A DNA stretch of 32,902 nucleotides, taken from NCBI GenBank assembly GCA_008015855.1, contig SSGK01000009.1:1-32902 (forward strand). The letters are read 5' to 3'. The stretch is from Candidatus Altimarinota bacterium. Its GTDB lineage: Bacteria; Patescibacteriota; Gracilibacteria; BD1-5; UBA2023. Shown in pieces: positions 1 through 32,661 of the stretch; the first letter of the stretch is position 1, and each line of letters starts with the position of its first letter. The position numbers and the translations under genes were made by a program. The notes beneath the pieces are model-generated. The model was not told the origin of the DNA, ran no database searches, and saw nothing but the letters and a program-made list of their open reading frames with translations.

Positions 1-1352
1 AATTCACAATGTGCATGTTTTATCGCTGTTTCTATAACATCTTCTGAGATAGCCCCATCCTGAAATCCGTAGAGAAGATTTTCTCAGATTGTTCCATCAA
101 ATAAAGATGGATCTTGAGTGAGATATCCAATATGGGCATAATATGATTTCAAGGAAGTTTCTCCTATATTTTGATTATCAATCAATATGCTTCATTGTGA
201 TGGCGCAAGAAATCCAGTAATAAGCTTTATGAGAGTTGTTTTTCCTGATCCACTCGGTCAAACAATAGCGGTTACTTGTCCGCCATGAAAAGAGAGAGAA
301 AAATTATTGAAAATACGCTCATTTTCTCCATACATAAAATGCACTCCTTCCAATCGAATATCTCATTTTTTATACAGGAATGTATTTCCATCATGGAGAT
401 TCTTTATGTTTTTTCACTGATCAAATAAATTCCAGAATTTCTCAACATCACCGAAACTATGCATAAAGTTCTTGAAAAACACGATAGATCCTTGCATATT
501 TTCGCGAAGCAGTGAAAGGACCAAAAAGAGAGAAATTGCCGAAGAAATCTGAACCACCCCCATCTCGAGTCAGACAAATAATGCAATCGTTACGAAAAAT
601 AGAAGAATATTTGGGATGCTATACATAAGAAAAAGTGGGAAATTCATAGCAATATTGTACTCATTCCCTTTTTGTGCATGCGCACTCAATATATCAACCT
701 CATTCTGAATTTTATTATTCTGAAGTATCTCAAACTTCGTCATAATCATTCGAATAATCTGCCTGTCATATTCAATCATTGCATCCCGTTTTAGGTTTCT
801 CCATTTCATTGCCCGGACATTGAGCTTCCAAACTAAAATATGACTCAAAAAGAAAAGGAGGAAGAAAACAACAAGGTAAGAAAGACCTATCTCATACAGT
901 ATAACAAATGCACTTGCAAGCGAGATAATGAGTTTTACAGGGGTTTGAAGGGATTCAATAATGAGAGAACTCCATGTATGGATTCAGCGAGATAGGATAG
1001 ATATTGCCTTCCCTGTTCCAATATTCTCAACATAGGTATTATCCAGATTATGGAATACTGGCATATACTGTTCATGAATAGCTCGTACATGGGGAAAATA
1101 CGTAGCAGCATATCCCCAATTTCTCATAAAGAAAATAAGGATCAGATATACGATACATCCACCAGCATATATACCCACCGTTTGCTCCACCAAATCAGTC
1201 CTTCCCATCTCGAGCGCTTCAATAATATATTTTATCGAAAAAATATTAAACACCGTAATTCCAGAATACATTATCTGAATAATAATTGTCTGAATTCAGA
1301 GGGCTGGCAGACGAAGGATGGGTTGAAAAAAATGTCGAGCTTTTTGAAACAT
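1..1352 (-). CDS. ABC exporter, fused transmembrane + ATP-binding protein; C-terminal end runs off the window
   Basis: Table-25 reading joins track fragments 984..1271 and 570..848 with the sequence below 570 in one frame. An N-terminal hydrophobic TM region is followed by Walker A read as GGQVTAIV-G(TGA 258-260)-PSGSGKTT and LTQDPSLFDGTI near 85-120. ATG at 1350-1352 is preceded by in-frame TAA 1362-1364. Confidence 0.85.
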
Positions 1353-1458
1353 GAGGTAAATTAATTGGGTTTATTATAGATGTTTTTCTCGACTTGCAAA
1401 TTAAGAATCCTACCTAAAATAAGTCTATAGTTATGATATATCCTTTAAATTTCACCTC

Positions 1459-2411: not shown

Positions 2412-2442
2412 AAAATCCCCCCAGATATTTTGGGGAGATTTT
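2412..2442 (-). terminator. hairpin with flanking A/T runs directly after giant gene B
   Basis: Plus strand reads aaaatcCCCC-cagatatttt-GGGGagatttttt. On the minus strand the stem follows TAA 2444-2446 and is followed by a T-rich tract. Confidence 0.5.
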
Positions 2443-2443
2443 T

Positions 2444-5272
2444 TTATGCAATATGAGAGAGTCATACCTTGGAATAGAGTTCTTTTCGCATTTCAGGGGA
2501 AACGATTTTTTCATACTGTGCGAGGTATTTTTTCATGTATGATTCAGCCTTTCATGTATAATTGATTGTTCCATCAAATCCGAGATCTTTGAGGGCTGTT
2601 TTCCATTCTTCAATTCATCGAACATCTAAGAGTGATTCCCTTCCTGTATCATCTCGAGTAACATCTACTAATGCTGTCACTTTGCTTCCATCAAATGAAA
2701 TATCTCATGCATAACTTCCACTCGTGCGACCTGGTCAAAGAAGCATCTCAGAGAGCATCTTAATCACTTTCTCTTTTGACTCACTCGGAAGCGATGCAAT
2801 TTTCTCTTTTGCTTTTGCAGTATTAATTCCACCATCCGCTTGAACAATTCCCTCTCCTTTTAATTCATTAAAAATCTTCTCATCTTCTTGTAACTTATAC
2901 ACTCAGAATCCTATCGCGAGTGCTGTGGCAAAAGATGCTCCGAATCGAACATTCTGAGAAAGTGCGGCCCGACCAACATTGAGTGTACCAATTTCTGCCA
3001 TTCCTCAAATATTCCGTGCCCCAATATACGCATGACGAGCAAATCGAATTGTATCGAGTCAGAATTTTCCAGCATCAATCACGGGTTTAGCTATCCATTC
3101 AGCAAAAGCCACTGCCTTATTCGGTGCTCGCAACACCTTTGATAATTCATAGATACCAATAGCCCCTACCGCTCAACCTGCAACAATATATCCGGGATGT
3201 TTTGGGATATATCCATGCTCAACATCCATTCATTCATAAATAAGAATACTTGCACCATATAATGGATTCATCATGGCAATATCCTTTGCAAGTGTTGTGA
3301 GTTTATTATTTTTTGTTGATGCTACATCCGCAATAACAATAGTAAATCAAAGATTTCTAAATAAACCCTCAAAAGCACTTGGAGTTTCTCGTGTTATTCG
3401 TTGAATAATCTCCTTTGCATCATCTCAATCTTTTGCTAAGATAGTAATATTTGCTTTTTCAAATTCTGGAATAATCTTTGATTGTTTAAATCCCAATGCA
3501 ACATTCCTCAAATGCTTTGCAAGAGTCCAATTTTCCTTGATTATACCTCATAAGGAAGTACGAATTGATCTTGCCTCTTCTGCTACATTACGAAACATGA
3601 GATCTGTATCATCCATTCATTTAAATGCTCATTTCAATGTTTTTCCAACTCTATCACCCCATCACATGGAAGCAGAAGAAGAGTCTGCATTCTCAATAAT
3701 ACGAACCATTCATTCCTTCCACTTCATTCCACCTGATTTCTCCATCTCTACAAGAGCCGATTTAATAATTCAAGATTCAAAAGTACTTCCAGAATATTGT
3801 GTTTGTAAAGAAGTTAATCCTTTTTTAATCGTATCGAAAGAATCATCTGGAGAATTTTTAATAACATCGACAATACGCATTTTTACCTCGATTTCTCATA
3901 CCACTTTTCTTAAATCATCCGCAAATCACTTCGTTTGAGCACTTCATTCTGGTATTTCTTTCATATAATCGAGCAATATATTTGCTGACTTATTAAATTG
4001 TCAGGTTGCTCAAAAATATTGAGATTGTACTCATGGAACAAGAGTTCATTTTTCCCAGTATAAGGGTGCGAGAGCAATTGTAGAAAGTAATTTTGATGCC
4101 TTCCCTGCAAGAAACAGAGGAATTGCCATATGATGATATACTATCGGGAAAAATGTTGCTTTCAATTCTCCATTTTCCATAAGCTCTTCAAATCAGTATT
4201 CACCAATAAGATTTATAGCCTCTTTTGGTCATTTGGTAACCAATGTAAGAGCTGAACGGAGACCAAATTCTATCATTAATTTTGATCACTCTTTGATCTT
4301 TGCAGTAATAGCCTCCGGGGGTATTACTCACTCCTTAATAAGATCTTTTAAGAAAAGGATTCAATCTGTTCATGAAGCAAGTAAAACTTCCATAACATTC
4401 CATTCTTTCTTATCTGAGACATTCGATAATACTTTCCCCATTCATTCTTCAATTTTACCTCCATAATTTTTCCAAACTTTATTAAAAGCTGCAAGTTGTA
4501 TTACGGGATCCTTGATAAAACCTGATTTTACTAAATTATCCCAAGTACCTTTTTGAAGTTTCTGAACCTCATCTGACACCCTCTCTTTCAACTGTTCCGC
4601 TTTTTTTGCGGCTGTTTCAACTGGATTGGTAGAAGCAGTTTTGCATTGCTTTCCATCCTTTTTAAGAAACTTTGAAACATCAAAGAATTTATCGAGACCC
4701 AGCGCTGCAAAGAGTGCACCTATCATCTCGAGGAATCATTTCCAGAATTTCCCAAGTCCCCATTCATCTAATTTCTCCCCCACTTTTCCTGCATGTTCTT
4801 GAACATCGATTGCAACTGCCTGAACAACGGTTCCTGCTTTTTTCGCAAGTTTTCCAGCATCAACCGTTCCATCTGGAATTCAAAGCTTCTCAGCAATTTG
4901 CTCTCCTGCTTGAAGAATTTCCTTTCCCCCTGGAACATTCGTCTTTACGCTATCAAGTGCTTTCTCTGCTTGAGCGGCTATATCCGATGATTTCAGCTTC
5001 CCAAGAATACTTGATTGCAAAGAAGAATCAGCGCCATTCAAAACCTTCGGAAGTTCCGCATAGAGTGATTTCATATCCTTAAAAACATCCAGTTTTGCAG
5101 AGGTTCGAGAGGTAATGTATTCTCGAGTACGTTGATAGAGAACTTCAAATTCCTCGGGAGATAATTTTGGTGCCACTTCTTCACGAAGCATTTTCTCAAG
5201 GTCCGAAGTAACTCCCGAGAAAGTTTCTGGAGTTTTGTAGTAAGGAGATGGGAGGAAAGAATTCTTATTCAT
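2444..5272 (-). CDS. giant hypothetical protein B, 942 aa, Gly/Ala-rich hydrophobic segments, no recognised domain
   Basis: Track fragments 4880..5272 and 4442..4726 and about 2 kb with no listed minus-strand ORF fuse into one frame under table 25; every TGA coordinate is congruent mod 3. I walked all codons 2444-5272 and met no TAA or TAG. ATG at 5270-5272 is preceded by in-frame TAA 5282-5284; TAA stop at 2444-2446 is followed directly by a hairpin. About 34 in-frame TGA by hand count. Confidence 0.8.
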
Positions 5273-5281
5273 ACAAATTAA

Positions 5282-8200
5282 TTATTTTTTACTGTTATAG
5301 TGGTTTGTAAGGTATGCATCAACTTTTCCAGCATATTTTCAGAAAAATCAAGAAATATCCGCTTCAGTGATAGCCTTTGCTGGAACATCCGTCATTCGTT
5401 CCATAGTGTCCATCTGATCAAGAAAGAATCACTTGAATGGCCCAAAAAGGGTACAAATAATGAGATTTTGTACAGGATCTGAGAAGTCCATCTGATCTGG
5501 ATTTCTATAGAATGCTTCCATTCCCGTCATACCAGCTGCCATAGCTCCACGACGATTCCAAACGATATCCTTTGCCATACCACGTAATAATGCTCCGGTT
5601 GTTTGTGAAAAGCCATGACTGTGCTTCCATGCAGATATCGTTGCCTGTCAAAAATCCTGAATCGTCATTCATGCTACAAAATTTCAAAGCTTATTCTTAT
5701 AGTATCTCTCACCTGTTATCCCCATTGCTTCAAGTGTTTTCATTCCTTTTATTTTTTCAAATGCTGTATTGAAAACATTCGTTCATTTTCATTCCTTTGG
5801 CGCTGGCGTGGTTTCATGTGATTTCGTTGGGGTAACCTTCTCAGCCAATTCAACTTCTCCATTCTTTCATTTCTGAATAACGGTTTCAGGAGCTGCTTCT
5901 GGAGTTGTTTGTTTTGAAGTTTTTGAAGTTCCTACTTTACGCATAGCAGCATTTAAAAGAGCAAGAACGAATCATTGAAAAATTTGCTCACTCGTCCATT
6001 CTCCTCCACCCAAAGTAACCTGAAGACCTCCACCCACTATTCCAAATGCGGCTGTATCTAATACAATTCTTGTTGGTTCTTTGAGAAGCAGCTTTTGAGC
6101 AAGATTCCCCTCTGCGCTTCAGAACTTACTATAGATTCCATTCAACCCCTTAAAGGCAGCAGCAAATGCCATAGATTCGAGCCATCATTGCATACTGTAC
6201 CCTTCTGTCCAATTTCCATATTCAATTTGTGATTTTGCAGCACCGTATCCAGCATAGAAAGCGGTTCCCTCGATTGCTGTGGCACCAACAAAACCAGCTC
6301 ATTTTCCTGCAACCGATGCAATACGAGCCGTTCGAGATACCTGTCATACCATTTCGGTTCAACGTCCAAGGAGAGAAGTGAGCTTACCGATGCGTGATGC
6401 ACGAGCAGCATTTACTGCCCAAAATCCAGCAGAACCAGTGAATGCACCGGCAGCAATCGCAACAACCTCCATCGCTACCATTTCACATCAAAATTTCCAC
6501 CAATCAGCATTTTTATCAGCCACATGATTCCATCCAATTCCTTCGATATCCTTAAATAATTCTAGTTCCTTTGATTCTGGAATTTTATTTTTCTTTACCT
6601 CATCATATACATACTCATATTTCAAAGCAAGCAGGTTCGATTTCTCGATGAAACTCTTTTTCATTTGCTCAACAATAGTATCTCTTGATCGTTTATCTCC
6701 TGATTGAATTAAAGTGTCGGCTGTTGTTTGAAATTGGGTTGTATACGTAGTTACGGATAATTTTGCAACCTCTTCTCTCTTCTCCTTAAGACGCTCTTTT
6801 GCCTTGCTTGAAAGAATCTCATCTGATATCTTTGATTCATCCCATGCACTGCTCTTCCATGTGTGGAAGGTATCTTGAATCTTTCCATGCATTTTATTTC
6901 CACCAATAAATCCATCAATGAGCCGGTCGGAAATAAGAGCATATCCCTCTAGTTCGTTTTTTATATAGAGGTAGAGTTCTTGTTTATTTCTTGCTTCAAT
7001 ATATTCAATCAGTTTTGGCGCATCCTTGCTTCCAGTTTCTTTAATGAGTGATTGAAGAGCTGGAATCATTTCCTCTTGTTTTAATTTGCCTGATTCAATC
7101 GATTGAATAAATGCATCGAGTTTTTTATTCCAATCTTCTGACATATCCTTGGAGGCAAATGCCTGAAGGAGAAGAAGGTAATCATTTGATTTCTCTGAAA
7201 TATTTTTATAGCGCTCAATTGCCTTCTGAACACTCGAAGGAAAATCTTTGTATTCAATTGGAAGTGGTTTTCCATGAGAGCCAATAATATAATAACGACC
7301 ATCTCGGAAAGATGCGACCGTATGAACCGATTGCTGCTCTGTTTCTTGTTTTCCTGTTAACTCATTCCATTTTCTTTCTGCTGTCGCAATCCCTGATCCA
7401 ATAGCGGCTGTTACAGGAGCGGCTGCATCCTTGGCAGATTGAACTGCTGAATCGATTTTACCTGGTTCCTTTTTTTCACTCTTTTCCATCGGTATTTCTT
7501 TTGGTGCCTCATACTTCATGCCAAGAACTTCATCGAGATTTTTTGCTGTTTTTTTCACCTCTAAGAGCAATCTGAGGAGATACTCAACATTTTCTTTTCC
7601 ATACTTTTCAAGAAATTCATTTCATGATACTTTTTTACCATCTTCTGTAACAAGAAAATCACCCCCAAAGAGAGAAGAGAGGGTAAGTTCATCTTTTCCA
7701 TCAAGTGCTTTTTGTATATCTTCCACTCAAAATCTTCGAAAATTTTCTGATCGAATAAGGTGAGAATATATTTGAGAGAGCTGTTCTCCATCTTTCTTAT
7801 CAGATTCAACTTTCGCTCTATGCGTCGCAATAAAACCATCCGTAAATCACTTCACATTTTCTGGAATACTCTTTGGATCGAGGAGATGTAAAAATGCCTG
7901 TTTGGTTTCATTTTCGTTGGATTCTTGAGATGTTCATCCCTTGGATTCATTAAAACGTTTCATAAAATTCTTTCCGAATTCAGTATTCTTCAGTCAGAGA
8001 TATCCAAGTCCCGCTGCGAGTGTAATTCAAAATCCTTTCCAACCACCAAATACAACACCAAGAACGAGTGCTGCAAGAAAGACAAGGAACTCCCCTCATG
8101 CAAATGAATTTCCTGATTCAGGAGGGCGCATGTGAAATGTCTTTGCTAACTCAATTTGTTTATTCAAAGGAAAAATACCATCTACCACAGCTTGTGCCTG

Positions 8201-9256
8201 TTTTATATCTTGATTGTATCCCTTTACAAAATCCTTTACATCCGCCATATTCTTATAGGCACCATTTAGGTAAGCCCAAAGAAGCATTTGATCCGAGAGA
8301 AGGATATTAGAAGATGGAGCTGTTAAACGATCTCGAAGCGTATCTTTTGTGAGATTATATTTTTTAAAAAGGACGGTTTCCACATATTGAGCCACGTTTG
8401 CATCACCTACTAATTCTCATTTTTCATTTAATTGGGATGCAAGAAAAGTATCTCGCTCAGAAGAGTTTAGAAGAAGTGCTTTTTTGATATGCGTGAGAGA
8501 AATATCTTCTATCGCAAATTTCGCACGGAAATACTCATGAAGAGAGGAGACAGAGTCTTTTTGTTGTTCAGTATCGCCTTTCCCCTTATATTGAATCGTA
8601 AAATCATTTTCTCATGAAAACATGAAAAAATACCCCTGACTCGAAAGAATATTGAGAAATGAGTTTACCGTTAATTGCTTAAATGATTCACTCTTATCTC
8701 GACTAAATTCGAGAGCATCATCAAACTCCATTTTCCAATGAGCAATAGAAAAATTTCCATCGGAAAGTCGCTTTGTTTTTTCAGCCAGTTGAGAAGCAAA
8801 AGCATTTACCTGCTCTTTTACGATTGGCTTCTTTTCTTCGGATACAACTCATTGGGATGGTGCTACTTCAGATGATGGTTTTACGTCAACCTTTTGAGAT
8901 GGTGGAGTAATTTGAGATTTTAATTCTGCTCGCTTGAGTTGAGATTTAGCAACAGAATTCATAATATCATTTTGATGCTGTGCCTGCATCAAAGCATACT
9001 TGGATACCATTTCTTCCCAACGGGTAAAAAGTGGCTCAAGTGCACCAGTATAATCTGGACGCTGACGTTCTTGTCGTATCCATTCAGCATCTGCATCAAT
9101 ACGAGCCTTAATTGATTCAATAGGCGTATCGGTCGTAAATTTGTTTGACCAATCACGGTTTGTCTCATCTGGTTTTTCAATCTTTAAAATATTCACCGCA
9201 AGAGTATCTGCCGTGGTTTCTACTGTTCATTTATTAGCACCGCTCAAAAGTGACAT
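5282..9256 (-). CDS. giant hypothetical protein A, 1324 aa, internal hydrophobic hairpin clusters, no recognised domain
   Basis: Track fragments 8849..9196, 8096..8395 and 6488..7570 share one frame. I checked the connecting stretches 7571-8095, 8396-8848 and 5285-6487 codon by codon and they contain only TGA, no TAA or TAG. ATG at 9254-9256 is preceded by in-frame TAG 9293-9295; TAA stop at 5282-5284, 9 nt before the next start. About 27 in-frame TGA. Confidence 0.8.
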
Positions 9257-9355
9257 AAGGAAAAAATAAAGAATATCAGTTTCTCCTCTATGCTATCACA
9301 AGTTCTAGAAATCTACAAATTTTCGAAGATATATAGCATAAATTTTGCATCCATT

Positions 9356-9383
9356 ATATGGAATAGGTTGCAAATGCAAATTA
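9356..9383 (-). promoter_or_regulatory. candidate promoter for the giant-gene pair
   Basis: Minus strand TATAAT (9361-9356) with TTGCAT/TTTGCA 15-16 nt upstream (9383-9377). It lies downstream of terminator 9423..9450 and about 100 nt upstream of ATG 9256. Confidence 0.3.
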
Positions 9384-9422
9384 TTCGATATAAAAATAAT
9401 ATGGCAAGTCTCCATTCTCTAT

Positions 9423-9450
9423 AAAAAAAAGACCCTTTTTAAAAGAGTCT
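9423..9450 (-). terminator. rho-independent terminator of the exonuclease gene
   Basis: Minus strand AGACTCTTTTAAAAAGGGTCT followed by TTTTTTTT. The stop codon lies inside the stem-loop. Confidence 0.6.
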
Positions 9451-10041
9451 CATAGTATTCGTGGATTCAAGAACAATAACATTTCGTTTTACTAATTCTA
9501 CAAAGGATCGCATGGTTGCTTCTACATCGACCATAGCATTATGTGCTCATTCAAACCATTCCTCAAAAAGAAACTTGTGCAGCTCGGAAAGTTTCGGTGG
9601 TTTATAGGAGAGTCATCGTCATTGAAGCTTACAGTATTCGGTAGAACTTCTCATAGTACAGATAGATTTCATAGGAGTATACTCCCCTACGCGTTTCATA
9701 CGCGCAAGTTCATAAGCTAAAACGGTTTCATCGTATTCTATATTATGACCCGCCACCACATCAGCGCTATTAAGTACTTTTAGTATCTTATCAATAGAAT
9801 CTTCAATATATGGCTTATCCACTAAATCACGATCATAGAGACCATGTACTTGAGAAGCTGCAAATGGAATCGAAATCTTTGGTCGAATGAGAATATCATG
9901 GCGTTCTATCTCGCTATAATCACCCTGTTCTGAAATCTCTCAAATAATCGCTGCAAATTGAATAATATGTGGTTGTTGATCGAGGGTTCATTCACGTACT
10001 GGAAAACCAGTGGTTTCCGTATCCCATACACATACACGCAT
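9439..10041 (-). CDS. DEDDh 3'-5' exonuclease, DnaQ / Pol III epsilon-like, stand-alone (200 aa)
   Basis: MRVCVWDTETTGFP (ExoI), ADVVAGHNIEYDETVL (ExoII), G(TGA)AHNAMVDVEAT (ExoIII with His). Extends track ORF 9619..9822 in the same frame through several TGA. ATG at 10039-10041; TAA at 9439-9441 lies inside a terminator hairpin. Confidence 0.85.
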
Positions 10042-10112
10042 AGAAAACAATCAATAATAAAATAATGACGAGAGTATATAAAAAAAGAGGGAAAAGTCAC
10101 ACTCAATCACTC

Positions 10113-20641: not shown

Positions 20642-21562
20642 CTATTTTTGTTCGTTTGATCAAATATCGTCAGAAATGAATGGTTTCGGTCGAGCAAGAT
20701 AGAATCCTTGAAAATAATCAACTCAGAGACCCTTTAATACATTCAACTCATCCTTTGTCTCCACTCATTCAGCAATCACTTCCATATGATTCTTTCTTGC
20801 TCCATAAATAGCAATCTCAAGAAATGTTCGCTTTGCATCACTCTCATCATCATCTCAATCAATTCATTTTACGTATTCTCCCGCTACTTTGAGATAATGG
20901 AATCCTTTTCCGGTTAATCGATGTATGCCTGATTCTCCCGTTCAAAAATCATCCACTGCAATCTTATTTCCAAATTCCCTAAGTTGTTTGAGGGTTTGAA
21001 CTGCCTGAGGGTGTGTAATATTGCGAATTCTCTCTAAAATCTCAAAAATAAATTGATCTGGATGGAGTGAAAAACGAAAACAAACCCCTTTTATAAACTC
21101 AACAAACGTCTCATCGATAAGATCCTGTTGTGTAATATTGAAAGAAAGTTCATGAAATGTTCCACTCACAGCAGCAGCTCCTCTGGTTATCATCTCTCTC
21201 GTAAGCCTCCTTTGGAGTCAGAGCGATTCAACGGCTCATAAAAAATATCATGGATAGAGTGTTTCGTGTGTGTCCGGATGAACAATGCGTGCCAGTACTT
21301 CAAATTTTCTTGGAAAACTACTCAAGAGAGTACTTCGAAATATTTCCTGAAATTCAGGAAATACTAGATTTCTCTCAAATGCCTTCTCTACAATTTTTTG
21401 TGTTTCAAGATTCACGCGATATTCATCCGTCTTTTTTTCATGTCGTAATCTTTGAATACCATCGTAGGCACGAATAATGGTTTCATTCGCGTCTGAGACA
21501 TGTTCTGTAATAGATGTAGAAAAAGTCAGTGGAATCTTTTCATCGGAAAGATGAAACTCCAT
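20642..21562 (-). CDS. C-terminal GGDEF remnant + EAL-domain c-di-GMP phosphodiesterase segment (downstream part of a frame-disrupted PAS-GGDEF-EAL gene)
   Basis: Track ORFs 21248..21562 and 20942..21193 are in frame under table 25. EAL-family landmarks: FEVLARIVHPD, YP-G-YFLGAVESLGL, LSFNITQQDL, IFEILERI, KIAVDDF-G(TGA 20942-20944)-TGESG, FHYLKVAGEYV, VIAEGVETKDELNVLKGLGVDYFQGFYLARP. TAG stop at 20642-20644. ATG 21560-21562 is provisional because the frame stays open upstream to 21638. Confidence 0.7.
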
Positions 21563-21576
21563 TTTTTCAATTCACC

Positions 21577-22512
21577 CTATAATATCACGCTTTCAGGAAT
21601 ATGCGGAAAAACAATTCAAAAATCAACTCAGTCCAATTTATATACCGTTCCATCTAATGCCGACACAATTTGTGGTAACCGTGAAGAAATTTGCTTTAGG
21701 ATATCATCTCCTCCGATACTTCCATGCTGAGAATCGGTATGAAATTTTGACATTCCATCCGCATGAACCAATACAAACAATTGATGTTCTTTTTTCTTCA
21801 AATCCTCAAGAAGGGCGGTCTTTCCAGGAAGTCCTGTGATAGGATCCAATCGTCGCTCTCTATATGCCTCTTCCCGTTCTTTCAATGCCCTTTCTTCTGT
21901 AATGTTCTGCCGAATTACCAAGTACTGAAAAATATGACCACTCATATCATAAATTGGCTGCACAATAGTATGAAGCCAGAAATGTTCTCCATTTTTTCGT
22001 TTATTACAGATATCCCCTATCCATATTTCTCACGACTGTATCGTAGCATAAAAATTTTTCCAAAAATCCTCGGTATGAACTCAGGAATTAAATAATCGTG
22101 TATGAACTCCTTGTAATTCAGAAAGAGAGTATCCTGATAATTCTGCCATTTTCTCATTGGCATCCAAAATATATCCATGAGGCGAAACATGGATCATAAC
22201 TGTATTCTTTCGTATTGCATTCACCAGAGTAGAGAGCCCTTGTATTATTTGATCTTTTCGGAGACTTCCAATAATAGCTTCTGATATATTTTCAATTAAA
22301 TCCGATATACATCATGGAATATCCTTATCATGACCATCAATTATTTTCCCTTCAGTGAGCATAATAAGTCGCGAAAGCGTACGAAAAATAGCTGAATCAA
22401 CGGGAATTGATGATTGTTCTATCTTCCCCTGTAATGAATTACCTATTTGATTTTGCATTCTATAAAGAGAAACTATCCATAAAGTGAATACTGTATACAG
22501 GGAAACCCACAT
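21577..22512 (-). CDS. membrane-anchored PAS + N-terminal part of a degenerate GGDEF domain (upstream part of the frame-disrupted gene)
   Basis: ATG at 22510-22512. N-terminal hydrophobic WVSLYTVFTLWIVSLY, then PAS-like VMIHVSPHGYILDANEKMAELSGYSLSELQG...KRKNGEHFWLHTIVQPIYDMSGHIFQYLVIRQNITEERALKE, then LDPITGLPGK...HADGMSKFHTDSQHGSIGGDDILKQISSRL...VYKLD-G-VDF-G-IVFP (DGVDF replaces GGDEF). It ends at TAG 21577-21579 in a different frame from the EAL part. Confidence 0.7.
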
Positions 22513-29344: not shown

Positions 29345-31405
29345 TTATTTTGCTTGAGCTGTGTATGCACCATCCCAATTATCTGGAGGGATTCATTCAT
29401 AGGTCTCAATTCTATCCAAGAAAATATGTGCTACAGAATCTCAACATTCTTTTACCTGAAGAAATTGTTCTTTTGCCCTTTGGAAATCTCCATCAATATA
29501 ATAAGCAAGGGCGGTCTCAAACAAATTAATCCTTTCCTTCTCTTGGTGTGATATATCCGGCTTTCGTCCTACTAATTCGTAAAGAAATGTGGTTTGTAAT
29601 TTTCACTTTACCCGTACCTTATCCAGCTTACGAAAGATAAAATCTGAATCTTGTAAGCTGAGTGCAATTTGTTCACTGACACATATTTTCGTTCCATACA
29701 CCTTATTAATTCATTCAAGTCGAGATGCGGTATTTACTGTATCACCAATAGCGGTATACTCTATCTTTTTTCATGCTCTTCCAATATTTCAGACAATAGC
29801 ATCTCCTGTATGAATTCCCATACGAACAGAGATTTCGAATCAAAATAATTTTTTAATTTCCGGATTCAAATTTCGAATACTCTCTTGTTGTCTTAATGCA
29901 GATTCACATGCATTTTCATACTGTTTTTCATCTGGTAATAGCGCTCCCCAGAGAGCCATGATGGCGTCTCATTCATACTTATTAATAAATCCGTTGGTAT
30001 CAAGGATACAATCCGAGGTTTTCTCGAGATACATTCAAAGGAATTGCATCAGTTCACTCGCAGGAAGCGATTCTGAAAGAGTCGTAAATCATTCGATATC
30101 GGAGAAAAACACAGTAATATTTTTACGAGCTCATCAGAGTTCCAATGCTTCATAATTCTCAAGTACGCTCGTTACAAGTTCTTCTGCGAGATATTGTGAG
30201 AGAGCTCCTTTGAGGATTCTTTTCCCCTTTTCCTCGATAAGGTATTTGTAAAGTGAGGTGAGAATCCCTGTCAGGATAATAGAAAAGAATACTTCTATGA
30301 AATAATTGAATGTCAGGTGGAAATATGTAAATATCGCAACAACGGATACATACGTCATGAAGAATGCTGCAAAAATAAATCCCGCTTCTGCAATTCGATT
30401 ACGAAGAAAAAAACTAACGAATGAGAGAAGGAATATAAATGCTACGAGAAATATCCATTCAATACGAGGATCAATCACTCGTATCATACTTTTATCCAGT
30501 ATGGTCTGGATAAAATTCGCATGAACATACACTCAGGGCATAACTCAAACCGGAGTGAGTCGTTCGTCAAACGTAGTTGCTGAAAAACCAAGGAGTACTA
30601 TCTTTCCGTCTACTGCCCCTTTTGGAATGATGCCATTATAAACATCCAAGAAAGAGAGTGTTGTAAAATCAGAGTATCGAGAAATAAATTGAGAAAGAAT
30701 CACATTGGAATCGGTATACGCCAATGGAAGAATAGAATATATATCCTTATGAAAACGGTAATACCCTGTTCCATACCTTCCAGAAAATGGAGTATCGGTA
30801 TTTATCTTGTTATCAAGGTATTTTCGGGTTACTGCCAGAGAAAACGATTCATACGTTTTCCCGCTCATTGTTTCCTGTGGAATGAAGCCAACATTTGCCG
30901 ATGTATAATAATCTTCGTAAGGATGAACACTTCCGATTCATACTGATCCAAGAGTCAAAGATGAAAGTGGCAATGCTTCTCGGGTGTATCCGAGAATAAC
31001 ATTCTGTGCTCAGGATATACTCTTTGCAAGAATGATATCATCTTGTCCATTATCTCGAAGAGAAGGTTCCGAAAAGAGTAAGTCAATCCCTACTACGCTC
31101 GCCCCATTCTTTTTTAAGATATCGATTACCTGAGCATAGTATGATCGTCGAAAATCCTGCCATCTTCCGAGTCATCCACTTGCATTCAATGTCTTTTCAT
31201 CAATAGCCACAATAACAATATCATCTCGCGGAGCATCTTCCGAAAATCCAGCAACGAGCATCATCGTAACACTGTGATTTGCCCAGGAAAGAAAATGAGA
31301 AATATGAAACAATGGCGTTACACGGAGTAACACCATTGTCATGGTAATAACAATACTAATAGCGATTGCTGCGAAAATATGATTATCAAGAAGTTTCTGT
31401 TTCAT
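29345..31405 (-). CDS. CHASE2 sensor domain / class III adenylate-guanylate cyclase (686 aa)
   Basis: Track ORFs 31172..31405, 30545..30868 and 30134..30532 and the fragment-free 29345-30133 share one frame under table 25. N-terminal TM plus periplasmic CHASE2-like region (IVIVAIDEKTL...VVGIDLLF...), three or four TM helices, then cyclase core ITVFFSDIE-G-FTTLSE, KYE-G-DAIMALWG, VRMGIHTGDAIV, YTAIGDTVNTASRLE-G. TAA stop at 29345-29347. Confidence 0.88.
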
Positions 31406-31413
31406 GACAATAA

Positions 31414-32661
31414 TTATTTATTATATTTTTCTGCCGTATTCCAGAGAGTTTCTAACATATTCTGTGTTCATTTGTTTGCATCTTCGATAAATCCACCAAC
31501 CGCATCAATTGTTTTCGTTGGATCATTCATTATATCTTCTATGGTTTTGAGGCTCTTCTTATAATCAAATGAGGAAAATTGATTCTTAAGTTCTTCTATT
31601 GCCTTCGTTGGATGAAAGGTTTCGATTGATTTCTCAAGAGCTCATTTGAGTTCAGGATGCATATAAGAATCATAGAGAGCACCTCGTGCAAGGGCATCAG
31701 AAAACTTATACTGTTCCTTTTCTGGAATCATCTGAAACAATGCAGCACGTACTTTTATCTTCATTTCTACGACCTCTCTGGTATTTCCAAGTACGGATAA
31801 ATCCTGATAGAACCGAAGGAGTGCCTCCTCACTCATCGATTCGAGTGATTGTACTGAATCTTTTCCATATGATTCTGCATAAGAAATAGTTATACGGAAG
31901 GAATCAAAGAATGAAAGTATCCAGAGTGAAATCCTATCAATAAAGTTCTTTGGTGCGAGTTTTACCATGTAATCATCCAATTTCTTCTTTAACTGAACCC
32001 TGTAAATTTCATCAAATTTTGTATTGAGATAAATCCATGTTGGATCAAGAATATCAGATTTCAAGCGTTCAAAAATATTTGACACTCGCGCCACTTCTCC
32101 GGAAATAAGCGTTGTGGTTTGTTTTGCATCATTCTCGAGCGTGACAGCATGATCCACAGAATGGATATAATCATTCTCAAGATCAATTTCATAAATGGTT
32201 CCTCGAACGGCAGCAGTCACTCTCTGACTTGGAATACGCGTAACAAAGTATGAATTTCCAAAAAGCGTACGAACCACATTGGTCCAGATTTTTCCCTGTT
32301 CAATACGATTCGCAATACGGATTTCTGTTAAGTCACGATTTACCATCACTTCTTCGATTACGAGTCGTGTATTTTCCGCCATACGAACCACACTTCCATC
32401 TGGATACACAATCGAGGCAATTCATTCGTATGTTACGAGTGTATCATTCTTTTCAAGAGAGTACTGTTCATCCTGTGAGACGGTAATCTTGAGATCACCG
32501 CGAAGCACGATGGTCTCCCCTGAAAGGGTATATACATACGGATCCGTTAGGCCATCCGCATGTAAGAGTATAGAATATTTATAAACACTCCAACCTATAA
32601 GTGAAACAATGAGAAGGAGGAGGGAGAGGATAATTCCAAACATGAGAGATCGAGAGTTCAT
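31414..32661 (-). CDS. FecR-domain protein with N-terminal membrane anchor (415 aa)
   Basis: Track ORFs 32422..32661 and 31642..32409 are in frame via TGA 32422-32424. TM FGIILSLLLLIVSLIGW; FecR-like beta segment IASIVYPDGSVVRMAENTRLVIEEV...AAVRGTIYEI. Read through TGA 31642-31644 and 31468-31470 to TAA 31414-31416, 8 nt before the cyclase start. Confidence 0.75.

Follow-up and report, generated by a model that had tools for sequence, protein, structure and literature searches.

The window analyzed here is a 32,902-nucleotide (nt) stretch of contig SSGK01000009.1 (assembly GCA_008015855.1, Candidatus Altimarinota bacterium), which carries on its minus strand two adjacent large genes, denoted A and B. 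The source organism is a member of the Gracilibacteria (BD1-5) with TGA as a glycine codon; in it, A is a genuine protein-coding gene and, together with B, makes up a conserved, self-contained two-gene module. The literature that we searched contains no description of an A-like or B-like family, so that the pair is undescribed and new at the level of the protein family; the novelty claimed here is that of the family, with the mechanism left out of the claim.

A two-gene module in a genome that reads TGA as glycine

When translated with table 11, the region of gene A breaks into short open reading frames (ORFs), whereas with TGA read through, it becomes one ORF that runs from position 9256 to position 5282 on the minus strand and ends with a single terminal TAA. 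The initial annotation, made from the sequence alone, had proposed one large protein with TGA read as glycine, and this ORF bears the proposal out; all the segments that it quoted are present where it placed them. At the local base composition, TAA and TAG are expected to make up about 5% of random codons, such that an open frame of 1,324 codons is not attributable to chance (0.95^1324, about 1e-30). Elsewhere in the window, TGA occupies universally conserved glycines of the ribosomal proteins L2 (HPHGgGEG), L14, L16 (MGgGKG), and S3, and the TGA at residue 1024 of A corresponds to glycine in four homologues, indicating that the source genome uses code 25 (TGA = Gly). TGA accounts for 25–37% of the glycine codons in A, B, the gene for a penicillin-binding protein 2 (PBP2)-type transpeptidase, and the CHASE2-cyclase gene; in secY and the genes for ribosomal proteins, its share is only 0–10%. 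Within residues 563–922 of A, none of the 18 glycines is encoded by TGA (P about 0.006 under uniform use).

That A might have no real gene behind it, being a pseudogene in decay or a frame left open by chance, is suggested by its 27 internal stops under the standard code, but each of these is a TGA, that is, glycine in the source genome. Moreover, the public assemblies contain a full-length strain variant (P0032) that is 98.6% identical to A and retains the open frame at the same length, and homologues with the same domain order are found in at least nine other loci. The code-25 frame, the TGA codons at conserved glycines, the homologues, and the strain variant jointly refute the notion that A is an artefact, and we assign it a vanishingly small probability.

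The order on the minus strand is secY, an RNase_T-type exonuclease gene, a terminator-like hairpin, promoter-like sites, A, B, and another terminator-like hairpin (Table 1), with the ATG of B located 9 nt past the TAA of A. The consensus scans for promoters and terminators yielded overall counts no higher than those in shuffled sequences, and it is the positions of these matches alone that are suggestive: the promoter-like and terminator-like sites at the two ends of the pair fit a discrete A-B transcription unit, which suggests that A and B are bicistronic.

Table 1 Features of the A-B locus and of protein A (window coordinates).
Feature	Coordinates	Strand	Description
RNase_T-type exonuclease gene	9439..10110		Upstream of A; Pfam RNase_T, E 1.3e-18
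Terminator-like hairpin with T-run	9429..9451	-	10-pair stem; spans the exonuclease stop; upstream boundary of the putative A-B unit
Two overlapping sigma-70-like promoter matches	9353..9407	-	TTGCCA-16-AATAAT and TTTGCA-16-TATAAT; each 10/12; 97-150 nt 5' of the A ATG
Gene A	5282..9256	-	1,324 codons plus TAA; 27 TGA = Gly (code 25)
N-module, A 1-384	8105..9256	-	No hydrophobic segment, no signal peptide
Hydrophobic helical hairpin, A 385-422	7991..8104	-	Arm 1, loop GGWKGFG, arm 2, then basic flank
Conserved core, A 640-1126 (about 490 aa)	5879..7339	-	Motif, helical region of about 250 aa, hydrophobic domain
Gly/Ala-rich hydrophobic domain, A 921-1110 (about 190 aa)	5927..6496	-	Conserved helical domain
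Thr/Pro/Lys/Glu-rich linker, A 1108-1160	5777..5935	-	Length and sequence vary across the family
C-terminal tail, A 1161-1324 (about 165 aa)	5285..5776	-	Private to A
Gene B	2444..5272	-	942 codons; 34 TGA = Gly
Terminator-like hairpin with T-run	2412..2442	-	12-pair stem; begins 2 nt past the B stop; downstream boundary of the putative A-B unit

Gene A encodes the conserved core of the family and is followed directly downstream, on the same strand, by a B-like gene of the 880–950-amino-acid (aa) class, the two features that define the A-like/B-like module. B is a divergent member of the B-like family that follows A-like genes in the other nine loci: it aligns with B86, its closest relative, over residues 87–848 (blastp E 2.5e-38), and a B-like profile matches its residues 133–252 and 656–717. 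The B-like proteins consist of a soluble N-terminal third rich in Ala, Lys, and Glu and several hydrophobic segments, of which 1–5 reach 1.4–2.0 on the Kyte-Doolittle (KD) scale, the most consistent one, near residue 790, reaching up to 2.0. The initial annotation had raised the possibility that the hydrophobic regions of A and B are paralogous, but the profile-profile comparison of the A core with the B-like proteins gives a probability of 0.4%, so that paralogy is not detectable.

Architecture of protein A

By sequence comparison, A is a mosaic that consists of an N-module, a conserved core, a variable linker, and a private tail. The region ahead of the core is a 630-aa N-module that includes a hydrophobic hairpin. 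Hydrophobicity was measured as the 19-residue KD mean, and membrane segments were judged from hydropathy; by this measure, residues 385–403 are the only strongly hydrophobic, classical transmembrane segment of A (KD 2.31). No hydrophobic segment lies ahead of residue 385, and A accordingly lacks a signal peptide, as the initial annotation had noted. The hairpin that it had also described (GGEFLVFL...GYLGL, residues 387–422, nt 7991–8098) holds up for arm 1, FAGGEFLVFLAALVLGVVF, which coincides with this strongly hydrophobic segment, but less so for arm 2, ITLAAGLGYLGL, which contains just about 14 apolar residues. The hairpin is followed by the basic flank KNTEFGKNFMKRF.

Residues 187–324 of A (nt 8285–8698) show a weak but collinear match (profile E 1e-4, positions 169–290 of the profile) to the N-module of separate ORFs in the loci L001, L024, and L012, where similar short hairpins are discernible by eye at the same relative position. 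The match, weak as it is, suggests that A may have arisen when such an N-module gene fused with an A-like core gene. The ORFs in question come from other Gracilibacteria and belong to runs of 1–4 consecutive ORFs of 600–830 aa (L001:12081-14573, L012:6464-15066, and L024:1075-7747), of which the first shares the N-module of A, and the later ones resemble neither B nor the A core. The exonuclease gene that precedes A in the window also directly precedes the run in L001 and L012.

The core includes the motif FRDGRYYIIGSHGKP (nt 7265–7309), of the F[KR]DGxYY..G.G type, which is drawn as short strands in the model of the homologue P0019 (predicted local distance difference test, pLDDT, about 60). 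The A3 profile matches residues 640–1126 of A end to end (E 5e-174), but because A itself is a row of that profile, this match informs on the boundaries only. Independent support for the core comes from blastp matches to A86, the closest relative of A (E 1e-33, A 649–1159), and to L084 and L085 (E about 1e-19). The TGA-free stretch at residues 563–922 (nt 6491–7570) is rich in Lys (13.3%) and Glu (10.6%), as initially annotated. The AlphaFold models are those of the homologues P0026 and P0019, not of A itself, with mean pLDDT of 63 and 53, respectively; over the middle region of A, about 250 residues, both are all-helical, so that the long helical middle proposed in the initial annotation is probably correct, with the low confidence of the models as a qualification.

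As judged by alignments and database matches, the Gly/Ala-rich cluster that the initial annotation had singled out is a real conserved domain rather than an accident of composition. Residues 923–1107 contain 16.2% Gly and 16.8% Ala, that is, 33% Gly+Ala, compared with 8.2% and 8.8% in the whole of A, and homology of the domain is detected by phmmer to L027 (E 1.7e-11) and by blastp to P0026 and A86 (E 3e-29) and to L084 and L085 (E about 1e-19). In the P0026 and P0019 models, the domain forms 5–6 helices of 23–30 aa followed by a beta-hairpin, at low confidence (pLDDT 27–85). The alignments show conserved acidic residues within the apolar helices (AMEvvAIAAG, AIEGTAFYaG, and vLDTAAFG in A) and an invariant Asn after helix 1, and the domain is closed by the conserved motif (E/D)WT.EQ..Q. 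The cluster had been described as multi-span. Its putative spans in A peak at KD 1.0–1.55, which is marginal for membrane segments; helix 1 (1.55 in A) reaches a transmembrane-like 1.4–1.9 in most of the homologues, but the other helices are marginal and carry the conserved Glu and Asp residues. The segments had further been characterized as glycine-zipper-like. Membrane-spanning helices packed through small-xxx-small motifs are a possibility for these segments, rich in small residues but marginal in hydrophobicity; A has no Pfam match at E <= 1 and hence no match to a glycine-zipper family.

The maximum hydrophobicity within the C-terminal tail is 1.19, at PVQNLIICTLFGPFKGFFL. The tails of L027, L055, and L084 are mutually related (E 1e-19), but the tail of A has no significant similarity to the tail of any family member save the 98.6% identical strain variant, which implies that a conserved tail is not a family-wide feature. 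We found nothing in favor of the effector or anchoring role suggested for the tail. Nor does it match a housekeeping family: the searches of Pfam, PDB, NCBIfam, PHROGs, and PADLOC with full-length A were all negative. Specifically, full-length A retrieved no Pfam families at E <= 1, no PDB sequences at E <= 10, no PHROGs family at E <= 0.01, and no match in NCBIfam or PADLOC. The profiles of the A core and of the B-like proteins found no PDB sequences at E <= 0.1. PADLOC yields just RT_UG4 at E 0.029 for A86, and Pfam yields only sub-threshold noise for the B-like proteins, including Diphtheria_T (E 0.076) and EzrA (E 0.085), each in one B-like protein. Foldseek comparison of the two homologue models to the PDB gave no match at E <= 0.001, only chance-level ones, with models that are too poor for a fair test of the fold. 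Among the 5.8 billion proteins of a large collection, none of the 8,000 scored candidates sharing the most words with full-length A was a relative, and a five-sequence alignment of the core recovered only the window's own fragment from the same collection. Nor did a relative emerge from a pattern scan of the viral contigs of IMG/VR, 2.9 million in number.

A rare and fast-evolving family

An A-like gene followed by a B-like gene is present in 10 loci, namely, the window, L027, L055, L081, L083, L084, L085, L086, L088, and L089, which span 24–59% G+C, with one pair per locus. The closest relatives of the window proteins, A86 (1,186 aa) and B86 (951 aa), are both encoded on L086, and the A core matches A86, L084, L085, L083, and L027. 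All the sequences in which the pair was seen are of the Gracilibacteria type, with TGA as a sense codon. The first relative was identified through secY synteny: an L027 ORF that aligns, over its first 216 residues, with A 921–1135 (E 1.7e-11). Among 80 species representatives, secY synteny places the module in only three related loci, L027, L055, and L038. A two-sequence profile of the domain then led to seven short fragments in public assemblies, and upon code-25 translation, each of their contigs was found to encode a full A-like gene of 1,019–1,295 aa, with a gene of about 900 aa directly after it, except in L084, where the two are separated by a 1.3-kb gap containing an ORF. A 289-position fragment profile, which covers part of the domain and the C-terminal extension of one fragment, was used for an exhaustive HMMER search and matched only 24 of 1.84 billion representative proteins at E <= 0.001, mostly fragments; the long ones led to three further loci, one of them from an NCBI Gracilibacteria metagenome-assembled genome, in which the protein (MDD3145208.1) is annotated only as hypothetical. 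A scan of JGI metagenomes added one short locus.

The public entries of the family (P0001–P0029 and P0032) are mostly code-11 fragments of 40–350 aa or full-length proteins with TGA translated as Trp (P0009, P0021, P0024, and P0032); P0019 is the only correctly translated full-length public entry that we met. Such fragmentary or mistranslated entries help explain why the word-indexed search with the correct sequence of A came back empty. The high-G+C relative L086:8201-14714 (a Logan contig of SRR22387963, 59% G+C), in which TGA also encodes Gly, illustrates the problem: code-11 gene calls cut A86 and B86 into three pieces each, and because 10 of the 19 code-11 calls on this contig end in TGA, other genes there might be truncated as well. 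An alternative, that L086 uses the standard code and distributes the system over six genes, was considered and rejected: the pieces share one frame, and the TGA codons between them fall on conserved glycine columns, which for B86 are invariant or nearly so.

Taken over the loci and collections searched, the A-B pair is rare and fast-evolving, and its divergence is modular. The N-terminal regions differ between the A-like subgroups, and the tails are related within the subgroups only. Pfam searches of the variable regions of the homologues detected peptidoglycan-binding domains, namely PG_binding_1 in P0009 (E 6.5e-6; 26.7 bits, cut-off 23) and PG_binding_3 at the N-terminus of L084 (25.9 bits, cut-off 24.6), along with a weak SH3_3 match in L088, and nothing else; the variable C-terminal regions contain no Pfam domain, and a glycosyltransferase-like assignment considered for the C-terminus of L087 was not confirmed by Pfam. 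The A-like gene of L055 (1743-4718) is itself a mosaic, with an N-terminus that by eye is of the L081 type, a different Gly-rich center without a match to the core profile, and an L027-type tail (identity of 60% over 270 aa and of 91% over the last 152), and it is still followed by a B-like gene. SecY of L027 is 74% identical to that of the window, whereas the hydrophobic domain of A is just 28% identical; SecY of L001 is 87% identical, yet this locus contains a different large ORF after the exonuclease gene that shares at most the N-module with A. Even between A and the strain variant P0032, in which Trp is stored at every TGA, 11 of the 19 differences fall within residues 392–452 (window positions 7901–8083), such that the hairpin and the polar loop after it form a local hotspot of substitution.

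Wherever the genes flanking A-B pairs were identified, they proved to be unrelated across loci, and include those for ATP synthase, EF-Tu and ribosomal proteins, ABC transporters, and CTP synthase. In the window, the neighbors are ribosomal, secY, exonuclease, and ABC-transporter genes; the ribosomal genes form the S10/spc cluster, and the window SecY is 54–87% identical to those of the 80 species representatives, which are titled Gracilibacteria, Peribacteria, Patescibacteria group, or "bacterium". A 216-codon code-25 ORF at positions 1975–2625 of the minus strand overlaps the 3' end of B and the hairpin at 2412–2442, and the upstream part of this ORF is probably noncoding; the ABC-transporter gene lies beyond it, at positions 1..1370. 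Several probable signaling genes are recognizable by eye from their motifs at 20642–22512 and 29345–32661, namely, those for a PAS/GGDEF protein, an EAL protein, and a CHASE2-type adenylate/guanylate cyclase, the last preceded by a 415-aa ORF. In L088, precomputed Pfam matches identify CHASE2-cyclase and GGDEF genes within 8 kb of the A-B pair. In two relatives, L008 (14597-15770) and L038 (17247-18394), a few kilobases from secY, there are small ORFs whose resemblance, by eye, is to components of Gram-positive-style type IV secretion systems, of the PrgI and VirB4-N-terminal types.

Possible roles of the A-B pair

The interpretation that we favor, tentatively and at somewhat less than an even chance, is that A and B constitute a lineage-specific complex of the cell envelope that is embedded in the membrane and acts at the interface with other organisms. 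Under this scenario, A and B would assemble into a complex in the envelope, with the hairpin tethering A to the cytoplasmic membrane. Both flanks of the hairpin would probably be cytoplasmic, given the Lys/Arg-rich flank downstream of it and the absence of a signal peptide. The Gly/Ala-rich domain would either embed in the membrane or pack on the hydrophobic segments of B, and the exchangeable end modules, which in some of the homologues include peptidoglycan-binding domains, would connect it with the wall or a partner cell. The rapid modular divergence of the family suggests action at an interface with a host, prey, or phage rather than a role in core physiology.

Several observations weigh against this proposal. 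Beyond residues 385–403, the hydrophobic segments of A are marginal and charged, and assignment to the membrane rests on hydropathy, so that the Gly/Ala-rich domain could instead be a tightly packed, soluble helical bundle; the low-confidence homologue models of this domain, with no fold match, do not help the case. The physical interaction between A and B is suggested only by their conserved adjacency. The main topological conflict is posed by the peptidoglycan-binding modules, which in the homologues are N-terminal to the core and come without a signal peptide that would take them to the wall; the A protein of the window itself has no such module. Furthermore, fast divergence is common to many proteins of the candidate phyla radiation and is therefore weak evidence of a role at an interface.

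The peptidoglycan-binding modules that lack a signal peptide would be less puzzling if A were exported, as in non-Sec-exported proteins, and inserted on contact into the envelope of a host or prey cell as a pore former or translocator, with B as the resident partner involved in export, docking, or self-protection, a possibility that we consider unlikely. The conserved Glu and Asp residues within apolar helices point in the same direction: acid-bearing apolar helices are known from the insertion hairpins of colicins and the T domain of diphtheria toxin, and A resembles colicin pore domains, diphtheria T, and type III translocators in having Ala/Gly-rich apolar helices with acidic residues within a larger helical protein, the type III translocators being, in addition, encoded by two adjacent genes for hydrophobic partners. 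Also compatible with this possibility are the mosaic end modules with their fast divergence, and the lifestyle of the relatives of the Gracilibacteria lineage, which are episymbionts or predators (PMC8080830). However, neither toxin, translocator, nor secretion families are matched, the Diphtheria_T hit in one B-like protein being sub-threshold; the loci inspected contain no secretion-system genes beside the pair; and the domain of A, of about 190 aa with 5–6 helices and motifs of its own, shares no sequence similarity or usable structural match with known pore or translocation domains. Moreover, the classical hydrophobic hairpin would hold A in the membrane of its producer, and B, as a large and conserved protein, does not look like a typical immunity protein. 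A more elaborate version, which we regard as rather improbable, is that A and B form a new envelope machine that engages another cell, in which B would be the dedicated membrane platform that exports or presents A in the absence of a signal peptide, the wall-binding modules and the acid-bearing helices would insert into the envelope of the partner and form a junction or pore there, and the mosaic ends would set the partner specificity.

We find it similarly improbable that A-B is a lineage-specific housekeeping scaffold for wall growth or division, comparable to membrane-anchored coiled-coil organizers such as EzrA but diverged beyond recognition. The membrane anchor combined with a long helical region, the peptidoglycan-binding modules of the homologues, and the presence of one pair per locus (loci rather than whole genomes) over the entire G+C range would fit such a role, as would the PBP2-type transpeptidase encoded in the window and the proximity of the ribosomal/secY cluster. 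Yet, unlike EzrA, A has no N-terminal anchor, and the EzrA profile match is limited to a single B-like protein, with no other family match; the flanks are unrelated across loci, without consistent division or wall genes nearby; in L001, the locus with the closest SecY, another gene occupies the syntenic position; and module swapping would be unusual for core machinery. Much less probable still is that the pair was left behind by a phage or another mobile element. Like A, phage tape-measure proteins are long proteins made up mostly of helices; they lack a signal peptide, have hydrophobic, Gly-rich segments in their C-terminal half, and contain peptidoglycan-directed modules, as do some members of the A family, but the likeness is loose. 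Neither PHROGs (E <= 0.01) nor the pattern scan of the IMG/VR contigs yielded a relative, no phage, integrase, or transposase genes were recognized beside the pair in the loci with inspected neighbors, the pair sits among housekeeping genes that differ by locus, and the 900-aa membrane protein with which A is paired has no tape-measure counterpart.

Among the systems to which A-B can be compared are the giant membrane or surface proteins of episymbiotic bacteria of the candidate phyla radiation, in the Absconditabacteria/Gracilibacteria group. The ten longest proteins of Vampirococcus lugosii, at 1,392–4,163 aa, contain WD40, PKD, integrin, and fibronectin domains (PMC8080830); these proteins are, like A, large, lineage-specific, predicted to be membrane-associated, unannotated, and presumed to act at the surface, whereas A contains no Pfam domain and belongs to a two-gene module, and the comparison is one by description only. 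Polymorphic toxins and mosaic surface proteins share with the A-like proteins a conserved center, exchangeable N- and C-terminal modules, and rapid divergence between close relatives, but A carries no known trafficking, toxin, or immunity domain, and the gene downstream encodes the large, conserved, 942-aa B rather than a small, variable immunity protein. The small-residue-rich apolar helices of A are reminiscent of glycine-zipper proteins but are longer, with conserved Glu/Asp and Thr, and fall outside the Pfam families of that type. Unlike the VirB6, TrbL, and TraG-type proteins of type IV secretion systems, A has no Pfam or NCBIfam match to such families (for B, the search covered Pfam only), and wherever neighbors of the pair were listed, ATPase genes were absent from its flanks; unlike defense systems, A matches no PADLOC model.

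Finding one more orphan family is of limited surprise in genomes in which such families are common. The A-B family nevertheless exposes a blind spot, in that genes with TGA for Gly are hidden from standard searches by mistranslation. Gracilibacteria are almost uncultured and are regarded as living on other bacteria or preying on them, and the A-B module is a concrete, testable candidate for a component of the interface between these bacteria and their partner cells.

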